Shown one piece after another: positions 505-62,800 of a DNA stretch of 64,000 nucleotides. The stretch is from Octopus vulgaris (lineage: Eukaryota). Made by a program: the position numbers and the translations under genes. The notes under the pieces were generated by a model. That model worked only from the letters and a program-made list of their open reading frames with translations, was not told the origin of the DNA and made no database searches. The DNA is taken from the NCBI GenBank assembly GCA_951406725.2, contig OX597836.1, positions 34,472,001 through 34,536,000 on the forward strand. The letters are read 5' to 3'. How positions within the stretch are numbered: the stretch's first letter is position 1; the number at the start of each line of letters is the position of its first letter.

Positions 505-725
505 TTACCCTGATGTATATATATTCCTAAACGCATTTTTTTCTCTCCTTGTTTCTCTCCTTGTTTCTCTCCTTGTTTCTTTTCTGTGTATCTTTCTGTC
601 GAAGAGCGTAGGCTCGAAACGTAAAAGACTTGTTCTATTTCTATTCCTGAGCGCCATACTAATACATTTGTTTGTTTGTACTCCACCTGCCTTCGTCTTT
701 TGTTTATTTTCGTAAACATTCCCGT

Positions 726-727
<2 letters not shown>
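505..727 (+). mobile_element. Short non-coding interspersed element with hammerhead motif (Penelope/retrozyme-like)
   Basis: Homologous to minus-strand copies at ~46374-46490 and ~59703-59790 (gaagacaggtggtgtac...tgtattagtataacgctcaggaatagaa); ends in (TA)n. Confidence 0.65.
591..628 (+). ncRNA. Minimal type I hammerhead ribozyme-like motif with variant core CUGUCGA
   Basis: tcttt-CTGTCGA-a-gagc(gtag)gctc-GAAAC-GTA-aaaga; 5-bp stem I, 4-bp stem II, ACGT palindrome; one core substitution. Confidence 0.55.
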
Positions 728-824
<97 letters not shown>

Positions 825-8479: not shown

Positions 8480-8872
8480 TAAAATTATAAATTAGGGTAT
8501 CTACGATATACCACCATGCTGAAAATGGATGTATTCGGATGTTGTATTTGTATATATATATATATGTATTTATGTTTCTTTTCTGTGTGTATTCTACTGA
8601 CGAGGCAAAGCATTCCTAAATGCAAAGTCAGAAATCCGGGATCTAGAATTATCCAGTAATTTTTTACTAGTTTCATCTTGTCTCTTTGTTTTCCCTCCGT
8701 GTTGATATATGGACAATTAAGGTGGTTTTAGAGTCAGATCATGGCTGCTATTTTCAGCATGGTGGTATCTTTATACATAATTTTAATAATTATCACCTTT
8801 GAAGGTTATTTTTTCCATGCTGGCCACCTGATAAAATCGTTATTTTATTTTAAATTAACGATCTCATCCTTG
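8480..8872 (+). mobile_element. AT-rich (TA)n-flanked interspersed repeat related to 58680-58830 and 59945-60058
   Basis: Shared ggatc...gaattatcca...gtggttttagagtcag...ctgctatt segments; degenerate CTGACGA at ~8597. Confidence 0.55.
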
Positions 8873-30786: not shown

Positions 30787-31476
30787 CTGAACAGTTAACG
30801 ACTCAGGATGAAAACAACACCAAAATCAAATATGCTTTTTTAAACAATAAACTGTTTTCTCCTTAAAGGAAACTTGAATGATGAATTTTGCTTAATATAT
30901 TTGTCTGAACTTAGGTAGGCCGTGCTGATGATTCTAACGTAGGATGAAACAGTACTATACATGGCTAACGAAAACTAGAAGCTTTAAGGACTTTATATTA
31001 TGCAAAAGAAGAAAACTTTAATGTGTATGCTATTTATCCTTTAACAGAAATTCCTCAACTTAGTTTAACCCCGAAGAGATGGTCATTCTTATAATAATAT
31101 CAATTCAACGGGAGTACACCACACGTGTGTGTATTCCTGTTGAGAGAGAGAGAGAGACAGAGAGAGACAGAGAGAGATGGATAGATAGATGGATAGATAG
31201 ATGGATAGACAGATAGACATTGTAACCCAACAAAATATATACAAGAAACACAATTATTGTATATTATTTATATACAATCGTATGTATATGTATGTATCGT
31301 GATTAGAGTTCTTCAAATTGCTAACAGTTAAATTTACTCATTAGGACAAAATTGCAGGCCGTATCCCAAATTTAGTTATCATAATTTTCAATATACGTAA
31401 ACACGACGAAACCACGTAAACTGAAGCAGTCGAAACGCAGGGATACATACATGCTCAGTTACATACATACATACAT

Positions 31477-31537
<61 letters not shown>

Positions 31538-31572
31538 TTTATTATATAGAAGGAGCTTCTACAGGACTAGAA

Positions 31573-31631
<59 letters not shown>

Positions 31632-31640
31632 TATAGAAGG

Positions 31641-31691
31641 AGCTTCTACAGGACTAGAACTGTTTCATTCAAGAGAAATCTTCAGGAAGCT
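31641..31691 (-). ncRNA. Type I hammerhead ribozyme (mirror of 32324-32374)
   Basis: Reverse complement of 32324-32374. Confidence 0.7.
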
Positions 31692-32323
31692 AGTTAACAA
31701 GAATTGTATTGGCATTTATACATTTAGGCAGGTTTAAAGGGGTGTTGGTGGGGGACTTTTTGGGGGTAGGCATAGCGCAAAATATCATACTTGGGGAGTG
31801 GTCAAGGAGTCAGTGTTAAATTAGATAGAAGAATAAATAAAAAATAAAAAAATAAAAAAATATTAAAAAAATATTAAAAAATATAAAAATATATATAAAA
31901 AATATATATATAAAAAAAGGGAATAGAGTTTTAGGTAAATAAGGAGATTCTCACTTATACCTATGCACATGTGTGTGTGTATGTGTATGTGTGTATGTAT
32001 ATGTATATATGTTTGTATGTGTGTGTATATATGTATACATATGTGCATAGGTATAAGTGAGAATCTCCTTATTTACCTAAAACTCTATTCCCTTTTTTTT
32101 TATATATATTTTTTTTATATATATTTTTATATTTTTTAATATTTTTTTAATATTTTTTTATTTTTTTATTTTTTTATTTATTCTTCTATCTAATTTAACA
32201 CTGACTCCTTGACCACTCCCCCAAGTATGATATTTTGCGCTATGCCTACCCCCAAAAAGTCCCCCACCAACACCCCTTTAAACCTGCCTAAATGTATAAA
32301 TGCCAATACAATTCTTGTTAACT

Positions 32324-32374
32324 AGCTTCCTGAAGATTTCTCTTGAATGAAACAGTTCTAGTCCTGTAGAAGCT
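32324..32374 (+). ncRNA. Type I hammerhead ribozyme
   Basis: agcttc-CTGAAGA-t-ttc(tctt)gaa-t-GAA-acag(ttctagtc)ctgt-A-gaagct; 6-bp stem I, 4-bp stem III, GUA site; U.U at the base of stem II. Confidence 0.7.
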
Positions 32375-32457
32375 CCTTCTATATAATAAATTAATTTTAC
32401 TCTGCTATGTATTGAGTACCTTATTTACTGTGGTTAACCCCGAATCAACCCGGGACC

Positions 32458-34732: not shown

Positions 34733-35058
34733 GTCGTGGATTCGTTGTTTTTTTTACCGACGTAAAAAGTGTGTTACTGTCAGGGAGATCTTTATGGTAG
34801 CAGAAAAGGAATTAAGTACCAGTTACGTACTGGGGTCGATCTAATCGACTGGCCCCCACCCCAAAAATTTCGGGCCTTGTGTCTAGATCAGAGGTCGTGG
34901 ATTCGTTGTTTTTTTTTGTGCCGACGTAAAAAAGTGTGTTACTGTCAGGGAGATCTTTATGGTAGCAGAAAAGGAATTAAGTACCAGTTGCGTACTGGGG
35001 TCGATCTAATTGACTGGCCCTCACCCCAAAAATTTCGGGCCTTGTGCCTAGATCAGAG
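34733..35058 (+). repeat. Tandem duplication, two units of ~162 bp
   Basis: tcgtggattcgttgttttt...aaatttcgggccttgtg.ctagatcagag repeated twice with few differences. Confidence 0.9.
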
Positions 35059-40675: not shown

Positions 40676-42597
40676 AAAGACTGGAGCTGGAAAAACTTCA
40701 TCTGCAGACTAACATGAAAACCTCCATTGAAAATCAAAGAGCTGTGGAGGAACAATGGGTAATCAAAAACATCAAACAGAACCCAAAAGTGTTCTATTCA
40801 TATGCAAATAAGCATAGAACCACTGTCTCACCCATTGGACCATTGATTGATGATAACGGCATTCCCCAACACGATTCTAAAGAAATGGCAGAAATACTGC
40901 AGAAACAATACTGCTCTGTCTTCAGTGTTCCCACTGATATTGACGTGAGGGAAACGAACGAAGTTAACTCCCAACACGAAATCGCAGACATAACCTTCAC
41001 TGCCACCGACATCGTAGCAGCAATAAATGAGGTCAAACATTACTCTGCTGTAAGCCCTGATAGATTTCCCGCTAGTCTCCTGAAGGAATGTAGATATCAA
41101 CTTGCAGTCCCTCTGACCAACCTCTGGAGAAATTCGTTAGACGCAGGTTATATACCGAAACAGTTTCTATCCCAGTCGGTCATCCCGGTTTTCAAACAGG
41201 GAAACAGATCCCTCGCAGTCAACTATCGCCCAATCTCACTCACCTCCCACATCATTAAAGTGTTTGAAAGAGTGTTAAGATCAAGGATAGCTGACTTCCT
41301 GGAGACCCACAAACTCCTAAATTCAAATCAGCATGGCTTTCGCTGTGGCAGGGACTGTCTAACACAGCTCTTACACCACATTGAAGATGTACTCAAAGCC
41401 TTGGGAACAGGTTCGAACTCTGACGTCATATATCTTGACTTCAGTAAAGCGTTCGACAGGGTAGACCATAACATCCTACTCTCAAAATTGGCAATTGTTG
41501 GAATCCGTGGAAAAGTTCTACACTGGATTAAGTATTTCCTGGCGAATAGAACACAACATGTTGTAGTTGATGGAGTCCACTCAAACCCAGCAAAAGTCAC
41601 CAGCGGTGTTCCCCAGAGAACTGTTTTGGGTCCGCTACTCTTCATAATTTACGTAAACGACCTTTCCAGTGTCGTACATCACTGCAAAGTGAAAATATTC
41701 GCTGATGACACTAAGCTCCAGCAAATCGTCAATGAAGAAGCAGACCGAACTCAACTCCAGTCTGATCTATATGCTGTGAGTCAATGGGCAGACAGAAACA
41801 AAATGCAACTGAATGAGGGAAAATTTGAGCTGATGCATTTTGGAAGAAATTCCTCACTAAAACAACCATACACTCTTCCTTCAGGGGAACCGCTCACAGC
41901 CTCTAACAATATCAGAGACCTGGGTGTAATTGTTGATGACGATCTCAGTTGGAGTGCACACATCAACAAGAAGGTCGATATAGCTCGTAGGATGAGTTCC
42001 TGGATCTTAAGAACTTTCCGGTCCAGAGAACAAGGTGTCATCATACCACTTTTTTCCTCCTTTGTACGGCCACACCTTGAATACTGCTGCCCACTGTGGT
42101 CTCCTCACACAAGACAAAACATCTCCAGAATTGAGTCATCCCAGAGGGCTCTCACTAAACAAATTGAAGGCATGGCTGCTCTCGATTATTGGGAAATATA
42201 CCGCCAACTTTGCCCAAACGACCTAAACATTAGCTTCAAGGTTCATCCAAGACTTGGACCACGGGCTATACGTCCCCTGCCAAATTCAAGATCACAACAT
42301 ACATGTACACTGCAACATAATTTCTTTTCCTCAACAGGCCCTGCCCTATTTAACATTGTCCCGAGGGAGATCAAAGAGGAAAAGGATCCCATCAACTTTA
42401 AACAGAGTCTGGATAGATTCCTTCAAAGAATACCAGATAAGCCACCCATAATTGGATACAACTCACCCAACAAGAACTCACTACTTGAACAAAACTTGAC
42501 TTAAACAGTATTCGAATAATCCTATCAGGTGGTGCTATTAAGTTAGACATGGCCTGGACCAATCTCTGGTCGAAACATATCTAAGTTTATCTAAGTT

Positions 42598-43870: not shown

Positions 43871-44090
43871 ATGTGCGTATGTATATATATATATATCTAT
43901 ATAGAAAATGCGTATTAAGGTTTTGTGATCTATGTGCTTGTGTACGTAGGCTAATTAAATGCGTATACTCCTGGGTAAGTATGTGCGTATGTATATATAT
44001 ATATATCTATATAGAAAATGCGTATTAAGGTTTTGTGATCTATGTGCTTGTGTACGTAGGCTAATTAAATGCGTATACTCCTGGGTAAGT
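43871..44090 (+). repeat. Perfect tandem duplication, 2 x 110 bp
   Basis: 43871-43980 equals 43981-44090. Confidence 0.9.
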
Positions 44091-44652
44091 ATGTGTGTCT
44101 TGTTTAACCCTTTATTTTTGTCTCAGTCATTGAACAGCGGCCATGCTGGGGGTGGTTATTGGTGGGGTTTGTTGTGGGAGTGGGTGGGGTCGATTTTTTT
44201 AGACACGTGATGTTTTTATTGGTAACTTTTTGCTGAAATGTTAAATTATCTGGACGTAAACAAGCTAATATCGGTTGCCAAGAGATAGTGGAGATCGAAC
44301 AAACACACACATAGATAGATTGATAGATAGATAAAACAAAAGAAACAAAAAAAGGTGGCATAGGTTTTCGATCAAAAGGGATCGTAAAAGTGAAAAAGAA
44401 CAAAAAAAAAGAAAAAGAAAAGAAAAAAAGAGAAAAGGGAAAAGGAACAAAAGAAAAGAAAATGAAAAAAGAAGAAAAAAGAGGAAAAAAGGGGAAGAGG
44501 AAAAAAAACGATCAATAGGGGTCGTGTATCAGTGTCATGATGTAAGGTATAAAGGGGAAAGCAAGTAAGGTTTATCCATGGGAAGAAAAGCCTACGAAAA
44601 AAGACCACGGTAATCTTGGTCAATATTGTTATATGTTAGATAACATATAGAC

Positions 44653-46268: not shown

Positions 46269-46363
<95 letters not shown>

Positions 46364-46510
46364 ATATATATATAGGGAGAGTTTATGAAAAAATCAAAAG
46401 ACGAAGACAGGTGGTGTACCAAACATTAAATGTATTAGTATAACGCTCAGGAATAGAAAAAGGCTTTTACGTTTCGAGCCTACGCTCTACTACATAAATA
46501 TATATATAGG

Positions 46511-50021: not shown

Positions 50022-51296
50022 GAGGGACGTTCAATAAGTAATGCCTCTGACCCACTTCCAGGTGTTTGATCTAGTTGAAATTTTGCATGTGCAATTACTT
50101 ATATCGCTATAGATTAGGTGGCAAATTACAGCTCTGAACTAATTATGGTTTCTGATTTACAGGTGTTTGAACTGAGTCAAGTGTGAAATGGAGCCTGTTG
50201 AGTGTCGAGCAGTGATCCGGTTTTTGTATTTGAAAGGACGCACACCACGGGAGACTTTTGATGAAATGAAAGTAACTCATGGTGATGATGCCCCATCATA
50301 TGACCTTGTAAAACGCTGGCATCGTGAATTCAAACATGGTCAGAACTCTGTGGAAACAGCTCCCAGATCTGGTCGACCCCTCCCTGCCATTGATGAGGCA
50401 TCTGTTCGTCAAGTTGAGGCTGCCATTTTGGAAGATCGCCAAATAGCCCATGAGGTCAAGATTAGTACCGGGTCAGTGGAAACTATCATTCATAACCATT
50501 TGCATATGCAAAAGGTGTCTGCCAGATGGATTCCCAGGTTGCTCACGCCTTTCCAGAAGCAAGAACGCGTCGAGTGCTCGAGGATGAATTTGGAGACGTA
50601 CCAAGAAGATGAGTCAAACTTTTTCAAAAGACTGATTACACAGGATGAAACCTGGGTCCATCACTATGATCCAGAGACCAAAGCCCAGTCAATGCAGTGG
50701 AAGCACCGTGACTCACCTCCTCCAAAGAAGGCAATGGTGCAGCCCTCTGCTGGCAAGGTCATGCTCACAGTCTTCTGGGACCAGGACGGAGCAGTGATGA
50801 CAGATTTCCTGGCAAAGGATACCACAATTACAGGAGCCTATCATGCTTCACTTTTGAGGAAATTAAGAGAAGCTATCAAAACCAAGTGGCGGGACAAGAT
50901 CAGCAAAGGCATCCTCCTCCTGCAGGACAACGCTCCGGTCCACAACTCGCGTGTCACCAGATCAGAAGCACAGGCGTGCGGCTATGAACTCCTCCCCCAC
51001 CCCCATACTCTCCTGACCTTGCACCCTCTGATTTTCACCTCTTCCCAGCCATGAAGTTGTTTTTGAAAGGAAAGCGTTTCCCAGATGATGCAGCCTTGAT
51101 TTCTAAAGTCACGTTGTGGATGGAGGACCAAGCTGGGGTCTTTTACAAAAACGGTCTCCAGAGCTGGATCAAACGATGGGAGAAATGCGTAACTCTGAGT
51201 GGTTCCTATGTAGAAAAAGACTCATAACTGTGCCAAGTTCCGTTGCTCTACTGGTATGGGAAGTGAGTCAGGGGCATTACTTATTGAACGCCCCTC

Positions 51297-57866: not shown

Positions 57867-58827
57867 CTCACACTCACACGCATACACACACTCACACACA
57901 CACACACACACATTTATATATATAATTATATCTTTGTTGAGATACAACACGTATCCATTTAGTGTGGCCAAACAGTGAACCTTAAATAGCTCTTCGAAAT
58001 AATGAGAAAATAACTAACACAAATTATACACATATATATAGGGTGTGGCAGCACTGCAAGGTTGACGAGTGCTTCATTAACTAGCAGCAGGGACTCCGAG
58101 AGAAATTTGTAGAAGTAGAACAACAATGCTTTGGGGGCCAGTAACCAGGGGGTTTCTAAAGGAAATATTTCGTAAAGAGCTGGGGGTTTCAGTTTGATTT
58201 GGGAAGTAACCCGAAAAATAGAGACCCATCTGTGGTTTTCTAGAACCCTGGACGATGTACCGATTGAACCCTTGGTTGCAACCCTTGTTGCTCATTTTAT
58301 GATGATGTATATACTATTGCGTCAATAGTGAAACTCCTTCTCTCTCTCTCTCTTTGTCTCTCTCTCTCTCTCTCACACAAAACACACACACACACACACA
58401 TATTAATCAATGAAATTCCAACTAAGTCTGATTTCCACATTTTATTATTTGCAATTTTTACAATTTTACTATGTGAAATAAACTCGTGCTTTCATGCGTT
58501 ACACAATCATCGGGTTTATATAGAGATAGTCGTGTACCACAATTAACAACAACAACAACACACACACATGTTGTATACATATATATATTTCTTTATAAAT
58601 AAGGATAAGGTCTTTATTTTAATTAACGATCAAATCAAGTAGCAGCATGGGAAGAAAAACCTTAGAGGTAATAATTATTATTAAAATTATAAATAAGGGT
58701 ATCTAAGTGATACCACCATGCTTGAAATAGCAGTCAAAACCTGACTCTAAAACCACATCAAGTATTCAGTACAGTATAAGATGAAAAGACAAATATAGAA
58801 AGTAGTAAAATTTGGATAATTCCAGAT

Positions 58828-58879
<52 letters not shown>

Positions 58880-58885
58880 CCCTAT

Positions 58886-58919
<34 letters not shown>

Positions 58920-59081
58920 ATAAAGGGTGGAATATAATTAATTTAATAAAATCAATCAATTTCACCTAGTAGATTTATCGGTATGGAAAAGACCATATTT
59001 GGTAAGGGTTATTATAATTATAATTAATATTTTCGGTATGTGGTTTTGAGCAACTTGTTGCATTTAACCCTTAATTAATTA

Positions 59082-59117
<36 letters not shown>

Positions 59118-59123
59118 CTTCAT

Positions 59124-59693
59124 TACCCTTGTGTATATATGTACATATCTAATATTGTATGTATATATTTTATTAATTTGCCTGTATAGCTAATAATTCG
59201 CTTACCACTTGTGATGGTATTTTAATATTACCATCTCTATATTTATTTATAAATAATTTTACGCATTTCGTTTGTTCGTACGGTGCTTGGTCACTTCAAA
59301 CGAACTTTCGCAGGCATTATGGGGGAGAATGTTAGTAGTTATTTAGCTGGCAGACTTTGGCTGATGAGAAATCACGTGCCTGGGTGGCGCTAAATTTCGA
59401 AACCGGTACCGAGTTGACCAGCATTTACTTGTTCTGACCCATTTGAGGTAAGACATTGTTATTGTTCACTGATATTTTTTCCTATCTTGTCTGTAATAGA
59501 TTTGTGACTATTCGGTGGTACAGAAGTATTTTTTGACTTCTATCATTAAAGATATAGGTACTCATGTAGTACCCTTGTGTATATATGTTACATACCTAAT
59601 AGTGTATGTATATATTTTATTAATTTGCCTGTACGGCTAATAATTCGCTTACCACTTGTGATGGTATTTTAATAATACCATCCCTATATTTAT
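59124..59693 (+). mobile_element. 446-bp-period partial tandem element (123-bp direct repeats) containing a hammerhead
   Basis: 59124-59246 repeats at 59570-59693; (TA)n on both sides. Confidence 0.82.
59346..59422 (+). ncRNA. Type I hammerhead ribozyme with canonical core
   Basis: gctgg.cagactttgg-CTGATGA-gaaat...atttc-GAA-ACCGGT-A-ccgagttga.ccagc; G-C at the base of stem II, palindromic stem III, extended bulged stem I. Confidence 0.78.
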
Positions 59694-59817
59694 ATATATA
59701 TATAGGGAGAGTTTACGGAAAAAAACACAAGACGAAGACAGGTGGTGTACAAAACAAACAGATGTATTAGTATAACGCTCAGGAATAGAATATATATATA
59801 TATATATATATTTGTGT

Positions 59818-59858
<41 letters not shown>

Positions 59859-60070
59859 TTTGTGTGTGTGTGTGTGTGTGTGTAATTATGTACGATTCGT
59901 GGTATATTCTATTGACAAAGTATTTTTACACAAAGTCAGAAACCCAGGATCTGGAATTATCCAATTTTTACTAGTTTATTTATCTATTTGTTTTTCCACC
60001 TTATGCTGTATTGAATACTTGATGTGGTTTTAGAGTCAGGTTTTGACTGCTATCTCAAGTGTAGATGCCC

Positions 60071-60133
60071 AGATAACTGAAGAGATGGTGGTGTGGATTT
60101 CCACTTGGGCATCCGAAACTCAGAGTTTTATCT
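60071..60133 (+). ncRNA. Type I hammerhead ribozyme
   Basis: agataa-CTGAAGA-gatg...catc-c-GAA-ACTC(A)GAGT-T-ttatct; 6-bp stem I, GUU site. Confidence 0.68.
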
Positions 60134-60234
60134 TGGCTACCGAGTAATTGTTACATATTATTTTTACAGATAAATTCCTCTATTTACATAATATTGAGGT
60201 CTCTTTCTTTCTTTTGTTATCTTACCGTTTTTAC

Positions 60235-60333
<99 letters not shown>

Positions 60334-60344
60334 TATATACATAT

Positions 60345-60383
<39 letters not shown>

Positions 60384-60409
60384 CACACATTTATATACTT
60401 TTATTCTTT

Positions 60410-61359: not shown

Positions 61360-62479
61360 ATATAGAAGAAGGACAAGGGGAAGAGAGAATGAGTAAGGGC
61401 GGAAGAATATGAGAGAGAGAACAAGAGTGAGGGGGGACGTGAGAGATTTGGAAATGAGAAAGGGGGAGAGAGAAGAAAAGAGTGAAAGAGGGGGTCAAAG
61501 AAAAAGTAAGACGAAAGGAAGAAGGAAGGGAGAGGTGAACGACGAAAGAGAGAAAAAGAGAAGAGAATAGAAGAGAGAGAGAGAGAGGAGAAGGAAAGAA
61601 ATAGAGAAAGCGAAAGAAGGAAAGAAGAAAGAAAAGGGAGGAAGGCTCGGAAGGGTTGTCGCGATAGCGTTACATAATCCTTAGTCCCAGACAACTACAC
61701 TTGATTCTGGTTTGTTTGTCAAATTAATTTAAATATTTAAATAAAAAATATAATATAGAAAAAGTGTTGTTGATTAAAATTCAGAGTGCAAAGAACACTC
61801 GAAAAACAATACAAGCGAAACGAAGGGTCCATTATGAAACGGAGATGTTTGTAAAAATATACCGAGAGTAGTTAGAAGTGTTGGTATTAATGGGTCTTAT
61901 GTAATTTCATTCGCGATTAGAGTGTCAATGTTTATGGAGTGGTTAGCACTTGAGAGTATGCAATATCTATTGACCCAACACATGAACACATGGACACATG
62001 AGCATTACTTATAAAGCTGGTGTGCGTGCATATACGTGTCGAAGGAGATGTGTGTGCGTCACCACCTCATCTCCAAAGGTTTCCGCCTCCATTTCCATCC
62101 TACTTTCCATTCTGCCTCTGCCATCCTACCCATACACTGCACCACTTCCTACCGCCTTATGTGTGCCACCATTCGTTCTAATCCCTCCAAAATGCACACC
62201 CTGGGCCGCTTTCTCCCTCTCACTTATTCCATCTTTTTTCCCCCTGCTGCCCACCATCCGTTGCACATTTCACATCACGCTTCATCCTCCATCTAAACCG
62301 CCTTTTTCACAACTTTCTCGCTCGCACTCCTTCATCCTGTACCACCTGATGCCACAACACCTCCTCCCTCCCCTCCCTCCCAGATCCCCTCCCCTTCATC
62401 CTCACTCCTACCCTTTCATTACTCCAACCCTGCCACACACCACTTTCTCCACTCTCTTCTCCCAGCTTTCCACCGCCTT

Positions 62480-62800
62480 CCTACCCCCCCTCCACACTTC
62501 AATCTGTTGTTACCATTCTTCCTGATCCCCTCTCTGAAGCGGGGCGCTCATGGACCTGATCTTCAACATAAAACCTATACACTTTTTCGTCTGGCCGAAC
62601 TTGTCCTCTCCCTCAACCGCTTTTCCTTCGCAGGGTGGTTTTACCAACAGGTCTCGGCAGTGGCTACAGGGACGAGAATGGGCCAAAACTATGCGAACCT
62701 GTTTGTCAATTACGTTGAGGCTCAAATATTCTCTCAAAATCGCTGGTCCCACTCTCGTGCAATACGGTCGTTATACCGATGACTTTATCGGTATAACAAA
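62480..62800 (+). pseudogene. Penelope-like element reverse transcriptase fragment
   Basis: LFRLAELVLSLNRFSF...FYQQVSAVATGTRMGQNYANLF and, after a frameshift, YGRYTDDFIG; these match PLE motifs G.AMG..MGP.YANLF and RYIDD. Confidence 0.82.

Follow-up and report, generated by a model that had tools for sequence, protein, structure and literature searches.

We identified, at positions 59124–59702 (+) of the window (the whole 64-kb stretch of DNA analysed here, a microsatellite-rich animal sequence), a non-coding repeat of 580 bases that carries a terminal duplication of 132 bases and, between the two repeats, a hammerhead ribozyme motif (Table 1). The original prediction had described a non-coding element bounded by TA repeats, the first 123 bp of which recur 446 bp further on, and both observations were reproduced: a (TA)14 tract lies on the left and a short TA run on the right, the longest stop-free stretch in a six-frame scan of the element is 52 codons, and 59124–59246 aligns with 59570–59693 with 117 identities, 6 mismatches and 1 gap. 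In a blastn search within the window, the match between the repeats extended to 59124–59255 and 59570–59702 (132/133 bp, 93.2%, E 1e-51), and weak homology leftward of the 5' repeat may reach approximately 59109–59123. The repeat period is 446 before a 1-nt insertion and 447 after it, so that one unit comprises 446/447 nt, with 36% GC. The same within-window search detected no further copy of the unit elsewhere in the 64 kb.

Table 1. Features of the element and its flanks, in window coordinates
Feature	Position	Strand	Basis
(TA)14 microsatellite on the left, likely belonging to the insertion target	59086..59113	.	
5' partial copy, pseudo-LTR-like, equal to the 3'-terminal 132 nt of the unit; ends in an internal TA-like run at ~59239-59255	59124..59255	+	Repeat alignments
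Single full 447-nt unit, 36% GC, non-coding	59256..59702	+	Sequence; junctions 59569>59124 and 59255/59256 found in other copies too
Purine-rich 5' arm of the predicted 27-bp helix around the ribozyme	59310..59336	+	25/27 pairs, -31.6 kcal/mol
Type I hammerhead motif with a weak, palindromic helix III; cut predicted after GUA 59408	59346..59422	+	Scan, fold, shuffles
Possible 52-nt intron: splice-donor-like start, pyrimidine tract, AG end	59448..59499	+	Motif match only, without control
Pyrimidine-rich 3' arm of the 27-bp helix	59468..59494	+	Pairing computation
3' repeat; the 3' end of the element blends into the TA run, likely the priming site	59570..59702	+	Alignments; X1 depth step at the equivalent place
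Right TA run, common to the element and an opposite-strand fragment of another family	59685..59704	.	
Adjoining tail-to-tail fragment, 5'-truncated, of a second family that carries a hammerhead-like motif; outside the unit	59705..59790	-	87-91% to 639-743 and 46355-46458

The element in sequencing-run contigs

Part of the element was found in 20 of the 24 listed runs, which come from 9 studies and carry 4 organism labels (best share of words, 0.50); exact-pattern scans of metagenome and viral contigs gave 0 matches each. Four runs were aligned onto one unit (59124–59569) at 80% likeness, runs with a share ≤0.2 being left out; DNA run X1 was read fully and DNA run X2 was read to 80%. Of the contigs aligned to the unit (1539 in X1 and 1257 in X2), only 261 and 289, respectively, were at least 99% alike, most falling between 80% and 99%, and the family is thus multi-copy and diverse. 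Contig depth is a rough proxy that yields no copy number and cannot rank the parts of the unit; set against the long listed X1 pieces (24–71), it would correspond to something between several hundred and roughly a thousand copies, a figure to be read as an order of magnitude. The listed runs included none marked as RNA; two presumed RNA runs contributed 11 and 14 contigs and a single 59569>59124 joint that is also present in the DNA runs, and are uninformative on expression or circles.

The head-to-tail joint 59569>59124 occurs in 13 X1 contigs and 9 X2 contigs, which indicates that the repeat is simply the 3' segment of the unit. Five of the 32 listed pieces (X1 records 1 and 2, X2 records 17 and 18, and X9 record 28) bridge 59255/59256 with 17–33 differences each, so that at other loci, too, the 3' segment leads directly into the beginning of the unit. 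Because these diverged contigs span the junction and neither of the two listed indels falls there, the junction is templated rather than produced by serial insertion. Diverged contigs from other loci also bridge the cleavage site, 59408/59409.

The two repeats of the copy at 59124–59702 differ at 7/124 columns. At 59187, 59188, 59228 and 59236, the left repeat departs from the family majority and the right repeat agrees with it; at the remaining three differences, where no variant is found among the listed rows, the right repeat is probably the changed one. The resulting decay of about 3% per repeat fits two repeats that were identical at insertion; a circle would be expected to give this result, and so would a tandem source with homogeneous units. 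Both repeats carry the same minority letter at 59192.

In X1, depth amounts to 59–80k at 59439–59543 and 39–73k at 59184–59243, falls to 7.9k at 59244–59258 and to 4.7–7.6k at 59259–59333, and climbs across the ribozyme (10, 14, 13, 16, 30, 39 and 51k). In X2, it is likewise lowest at 59259–59333 (2.7–4.0k), with the fall beginning earlier, from 59184; the 3' step at 59243–59250 is clear in X1 only. Followed in the direction of reverse transcription, the profile points to a start at the TA-like run, which is also where the copy at 59124–59702 ends, then a plateau, and then an approximately tenfold fall over the structured block, although part of this 5' fall may reflect diverged subfamilies below 80% likeness. 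A fixed internal 3' end with variable 5' truncation thus fits the X1 pattern and, in part, that of X2, depth being a rough guide. At the cut itself we observed no depth step between 59398 and 59411 (26.2k vs 30.5k in X1, 29.5k vs 25.7k in X2), and no sharp pile-up of 5' ends was seen there in contig depth.

Only 2 in 100 of the aligned DNA contigs run on into unlike sequence, and the 12 listed DNA loose ends display no long shared exit besides element-like variants; those at 59276, 59374 and 59445 resemble variants of the same region. TA-rich loose ends also lie behind 59168 (21 and 13 contigs). The loose ends at 59160–59168 may represent a second 3' end approximately 77 nt before the main one, comparable to the optional Penelope tail, or misplaced microsatellites.

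The hammerhead motif and a predicted enclosing helix

The motif between the repeats has the sequence characters of a type I hammerhead, namely, a core of the form CUGANGA / GAAA / NUH (CUGAUGA at 59361–59367, GAAA at 59399–59402, and GUA with the cut after 59408), helices I to III, and an open helix I. Helix I consists of 7 bp with a bulge, a 2x2 loop and 5 bp, helix II of 5 bp, an internal loop and 5 bp, and helix III of the palindrome ACCGGU; the G10.1-C11.1 pair is present. A strict scan of the 64-kb window recovered this motif and one poor motif (14213, minus strand) only, and the same scan found 0 motifs in each of 30 locally shuffled windows, in agreement with the earlier claim that the best-formed hammerhead of the window lies between the repeats. 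Rfam yielded no match of any kind in the window at the gathering threshold; at E up to 10, the 45 matches in 58400–60400 were all far below the gathering score, and none is a hammerhead or other ribozyme. No core variant appears among the 40 of 86 family variant rows listed, and, among those listed at paired positions of the ribozyme, the pair is kept in 5/6.

The hammerhead region folds with a z of -3.0, 2/200 shuffles being equally good. The active fold (-18.7 kcal/mol) lies 8.7 kcal/mol above the minimum-energy fold (-27.4 kcal/mol), as anticipated if the ribozyme depends on a partner copy, and inefficient cleavage is predicted for the lone ribozyme unless a second copy or a protein assists it. 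Hammerheads with a weak helix III are described as requiring dimers (PMC4209133, PMC7229834).

The ribozyme is enclosed by a predicted 27-bp helix, the arms of which pair at all but two positions (Table 1). Among 300 shuffles, the mean energy was -13.5 and the best -23.3 kcal/mol, and the minus strand reached -6.0 kcal/mol; by this computation, the helix is strand-specific, and it is a new feature here. Both mismatches are closed by letters found in the family, at 59318 in 98% and 94% of depth and at 59487 in 19% and 23%. For the ribozyme and the helix taken together, 16 variants are listed at paired positions, of which 12 preserve or newly form a pair and 4 disrupt one; the linkage between letters is unreadable, and two-sided covariation is thus not established. 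In the uncleaved RNA, the helix would frame the ribozyme, whereas in the cut monomer, it would clamp both ends together. It is, as modelled, the best hint for a circle, though compatible with a scenario without one.

The 3' arm of the helix overlaps an intron-like stretch (Table 1). No spliced joint across it occurs among the 15 of 56 family joints listed, and three contigs from presumed RNA runs cross it unspliced; the motif match makes a 52-nt intron possible.

Class of the element and nature of its template

The element is likely to be a genuine non-autonomous retroelement with a hammerhead, of the Penelope/retrozyme class, that was copied into a TA microsatellite. It shows the partial tandem typical of Penelope elements, with a 5'-truncated copy ahead of a full unit, and shares with non-LTR retrozymes a non-coding unit within 150–450 bp, low GC, one type I hammerhead and a multi-copy family. 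It works like a retrozyme and, as regards tandems and circles, is a candidate member: the locus carries one ribozyme rather than two, and the head-to-tail junctions of the family are seen in listed pieces of ≤285 nt. No ORF is present, and hence none of the RT plus GIY-YIG type of autonomous Penelope-like elements (PLEs). When nine PLE-like proteins were compared to the element by tblastn, no significant match was obtained, the best (E 0.044) being on the opposite strand and containing a stop.

The template cannot have been interrupted at the cleavage site or at the 3' end, because contigs from diverged copies span 59255/59256 as well as 59408/59409 and depth shows no step at the cut. The original prediction had regarded the copy as the footprint of a circular RNA, retrozyme-like in kind. 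The comparison with retrozymes is fair, and so is the idea of a continuous template, but the circle itself is not demonstrated by the DNA. The permuted ends that a circular template was expected to leave are not seen at the 3' side, where X1 depth drops from 39–73k to 8k at the TA-like run; nor was a coding PLE body seen attached to the copies, which had been named as the sign of the contrary. A Penelope pseudo-LTR partial tandem had been offered as the alternative, and the anatomy is indeed Penelope-like, but this is the same element class rather than a separate one. The two options overlap, given that circular templates have been proposed for PLE tandems (PMC4209133) and that animal retrozymes have been derived from Penelope pseudo-LTRs (bioRxiv 10.64898/2026.07.22.740005).

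On balance, we favor, with somewhat better than even confidence, a non-autonomous Penelope-type retroelement of the non-LTR retrozyme class, the template of which was a linear transcript, uncleaved and terminally redundant. The source locus, a tandem or partial tandem, would be transcribed on the ribozyme strand, and a Penelope RT/GIY-YIG protein made elsewhere would nick a (TA)n tract and prime inside the RNA, at the TA-like run of the unit, which would produce the preferred 3' end. As hinted by depth, most cDNAs would stop in or near the structured block formed by the ribozyme and the 27-bp helix; some copies, as the contigs show, do continue through the cut site into a second round of the 3' segment. 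The copy at 59124–59702 would have stopped 132 nt into that second round, with approximately 2–3% decay per copy since insertion. The linear template is preferred over the circle because there is one ribozyme with a weak helix III, no two-ribozyme locus can be demonstrated in pieces of ≤285 nt, and the sole PLE studied in vitro primes internally, with unprocessed RNA as the dominant template (PMC11167929). Also in its favor are, within the window, a second family with a hammerhead-like motif, all three copies of which end at the same TA junction, and a relic RT (62555–62737) that resembles RT plus GIY-YIG proteins. Against this explanation, no autonomous partner sharing the unit was found in the window, where the relic RT has no blastn-visible DNA in common with it, and the priming site of the anole PLE is not homologous to its target, whereas the end of the element here is TA-like.

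The DNA data do not separate an uncleaved linear template from a religated circle, and the second, in our judgment appreciably less probable, would belong to the same class. A double hammerhead would cut a dimer or longer transcript, the ends would be held together by helix I and the 27-bp helix, a host ligase would close the 446-nt circle, and a Penelope RT, starting from the TA-like run, would go round 1.3 times. Such a course would account for the continuity across the cut and the 3' end in the contigs and for the minority letter in both repeats. The strand-specific clamp helix, with both mismatches closed by family letters, fits a circle at least equally well, and the unit size is within the reported 150–450 bp; circles have been proven in coral, mussel and axolotl (PMC7229834). 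However, the lone ribozyme at 59124–59702 cannot excise the unit by cleavage at its own sites, no two-hammerhead locus occurs among the listed pieces (the longest, at 285 nt, is too short to show one), and 1/9 Xenopus retrozyme dimers were cleaved in vitro (bioRxiv 10.64898/2026.07.22.740005). The cut-to-cut monomer does fold better than shuffles as a circle (z -3.7, 0/60; z -3.4, 0/40), but it folds as well when linear (-114.5 vs -110.3) and with an equal z on the minus strand; whole-unit folding is therefore non-specific and was discounted as support. A circle joined at GUA would have the exact genomic sequence, so that junction reads alone cannot prove it.

In its fuller form, which we put forward tentatively, the circular hypothesis describes a dispersed SINE-like retrozyme family, in what seems to be an octopus, in which the 446-nt circle would be closed with the help of the 27-bp clamp helix; reverse transcription would start at a fixed TA primer site inside the unit and go round more than once. 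If true, hundreds of datable copies would provide a direct test of circular templates for Penelope partial tandems. The family seems to keep the priming site and truncation points readable across many copies, together with a long helix bridging the cleavage site.

It is unlikely that the unit instead belongs to an autonomous Penelope element as its pseudo-LTR region, the copy being a truncated or internally deleted piece of that element rather than a member of a self-standing family. Hammerheads of this kind are mostly single motifs from truncated PLEs (PMC4209133), the splice-like signals beside the ribozyme recall the 5' UTR intron of PLEs (PMC8557442), and the listed loose ends are only part of the total, with 353 more rows. 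Nevertheless, both unit junctions are common to many copies, the rare contigs that leave the unit have no long exit in common among the 12 listed, and the nine PLE-like proteins gave no significant match. Least probable is that the duplication came about when the RT jumped from one cleaved linear monomer to another, through a local duplication of the DNA, or through two serial insertions into one TA run: the divergence of the repeats and a region that is a pile-up of insertions in TA runs would suit it, but the same junctions recur in diverged copies at other loci, and the depth step that run-off from a cleaved 5' end would give at the cut is absent.

Relation to known elements and genomic neighborhood

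Hammerhead-bearing Penelope derivatives are already known to be common in animal genomes, and the idea of circular templates dates, in print, from 2014. In that year, type I hammerheads were reported in PLE repeats, mostly as single motifs, and circles were proposed as templates for more-than-unit copies (PMC4209133). Metazoan non-LTR retrozymes were then defined, with circles shown in coral, mussel and axolotl (PMC7229834), and a preprint traces the Xenopus retrozymes to Penelope pseudo-LTRs, with 1/9 dimers cleaved (bioRxiv 10.64898/2026.07.22.740005). Partial tandems, 5' truncation and non-autonomous PLEs, as well as (TA)n targets for Naiads, are described in PMC8557442, and internal priming with unprocessed RNA as the dominant in vitro template in PMC11167929.

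As in the metazoan non-LTR retrozymes of PMC7229834 and the preprint, the unit here is non-coding, within 150–450 bp and below 50% GC, with one type I hammerhead per unit; the RNA is self-paired, the host has Penelope elements, and the weak palindromic helix III is like that of axolotl HHR_Amex1. Unlike them, the copy at 59124–59702 is a 1.3-mer with one ribozyme and no dimer or array, and thus lacks the two ribozymes that the preprint's rule asks of an active retrozyme, and the family gives the appearance of being dispersed, with 5' truncation and a 3' end placed preferentially at TA. With pseudo-LTR hammerhead PLEs such as Poseidon and Neptune (PMC4209133, PMC11167929, PMC8557442), it shares the partial tandem with a 5'-truncated copy before a full unit, a hammerhead upstream of the internal 3' end, an AT-rich target and 5' truncation. 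It differs from them in having no ORF, in a 3' end that is TA-like and lies approximately 285 nt past the cut, with the 30–40 bp tail not established here, and in its ribozyme, which, compared to their minimal form, is canonical, with no extra nucleotide before G10.1 and with extended helices I and II.

The Chlamys non-autonomous elements, such as MRC1, are likewise non-autonomous PLEs that make pseudo-LTRs and head-to-tail insertions, but their host is a green alga and PMC8557442 reports N-terminal-endonuclease PLEs as being without canonical hammerheads. The LTR retrozymes of plants (PMC4918200) are also hammerhead-bearing and non-coding with terminal repeats, but theirs is a type III hammerhead inside each LTR, whereas here, one type I motif lies between the repeats. 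For Octopus vulgaris, 31 recently active Penelope-like families have been reported, and the main text of that 2026 repeat annotation makes no mention of ribozymes (PMC13282606); the supplement of PMC4918200 includes no octopus, cephalopod or squid. A literature search for hammerhead with Octopus and Penelope, or with cephalopod, listed only one Naiad and one twister paper, and the supplements of PMC7229834 or the preprint may list such a repeat.

Several other repeats and coding relics were observed in the window. An inverted pair of another repeat family (58721–58830 and 59946–60059, 88%) lies approximately 300 bp to each side of the element. Terminal inverted repeats and an inverted pseudo-LTR were both considered as explanations of this 110-bp pair, but neither was retained, as the pair shares no sequence with the unit and has a third copy at 8587–8751. 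At 58877–58930, short inverted repeats around a TA run could form a long hairpin, with only chance matches to microRNA models. The second short family with a hammerhead-like motif, a fragment of which adjoins the element, is present at 589–749 (+), 46351–46502 (-) and 59685–59790 (-); the first of these copies has a hammerhead-like core at 596 with one core mismatch, and all three end at the same TA junction approximately 100 nt past the predicted cut.

Additional motifs resembling type I hammerheads, with a helix I of 6–9 bp, lie at 30925 (+), 34661 (+), 60077 (+) and 32611 (-), and looser candidates at 1062 (-) and 11645 (-). A relaxed ribozyme scan returned 7 motifs in the window vs 0–6 (mean 1.4) in 30 shuffles, so that only some of them are likely to be real. 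A palindrome of approximately 770 bp (31622–32393, 94%), with a (TG)-rich center and a hammerhead-like core at each end (32330 + and 31685 -), is possibly an inverted Penelope-type insertion or an assembly fold-back; short repeats lie beside it at 31488–31663. Shortly after the 34661 motif comes a two-copy tandem (34733–35058; 165 bp, 94%), and a second such tandem lies at 43871–44095 (110 bp, 100%).

The relic RT at 62555–62737 is broken and is preceded by a C-rich stretch at approximately 62060–62530. Its identity to nine proteins is 53–75%, and a domain scan of three of these showed RVT_1 (below the cut-off) plus GIY-YIG (1/3 above the cut-off), the Penelope domain order; Pfam returned 0 families for the three frames of the relic itself, which is not linked to the element at 59124–59702. 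In addition, the window contains a LINE-type RT in a long open frame at 40702–42504 (RVT_1, E 1e-28) and a mariner-type transposase frame at 50176–51054 (E 4e-21).
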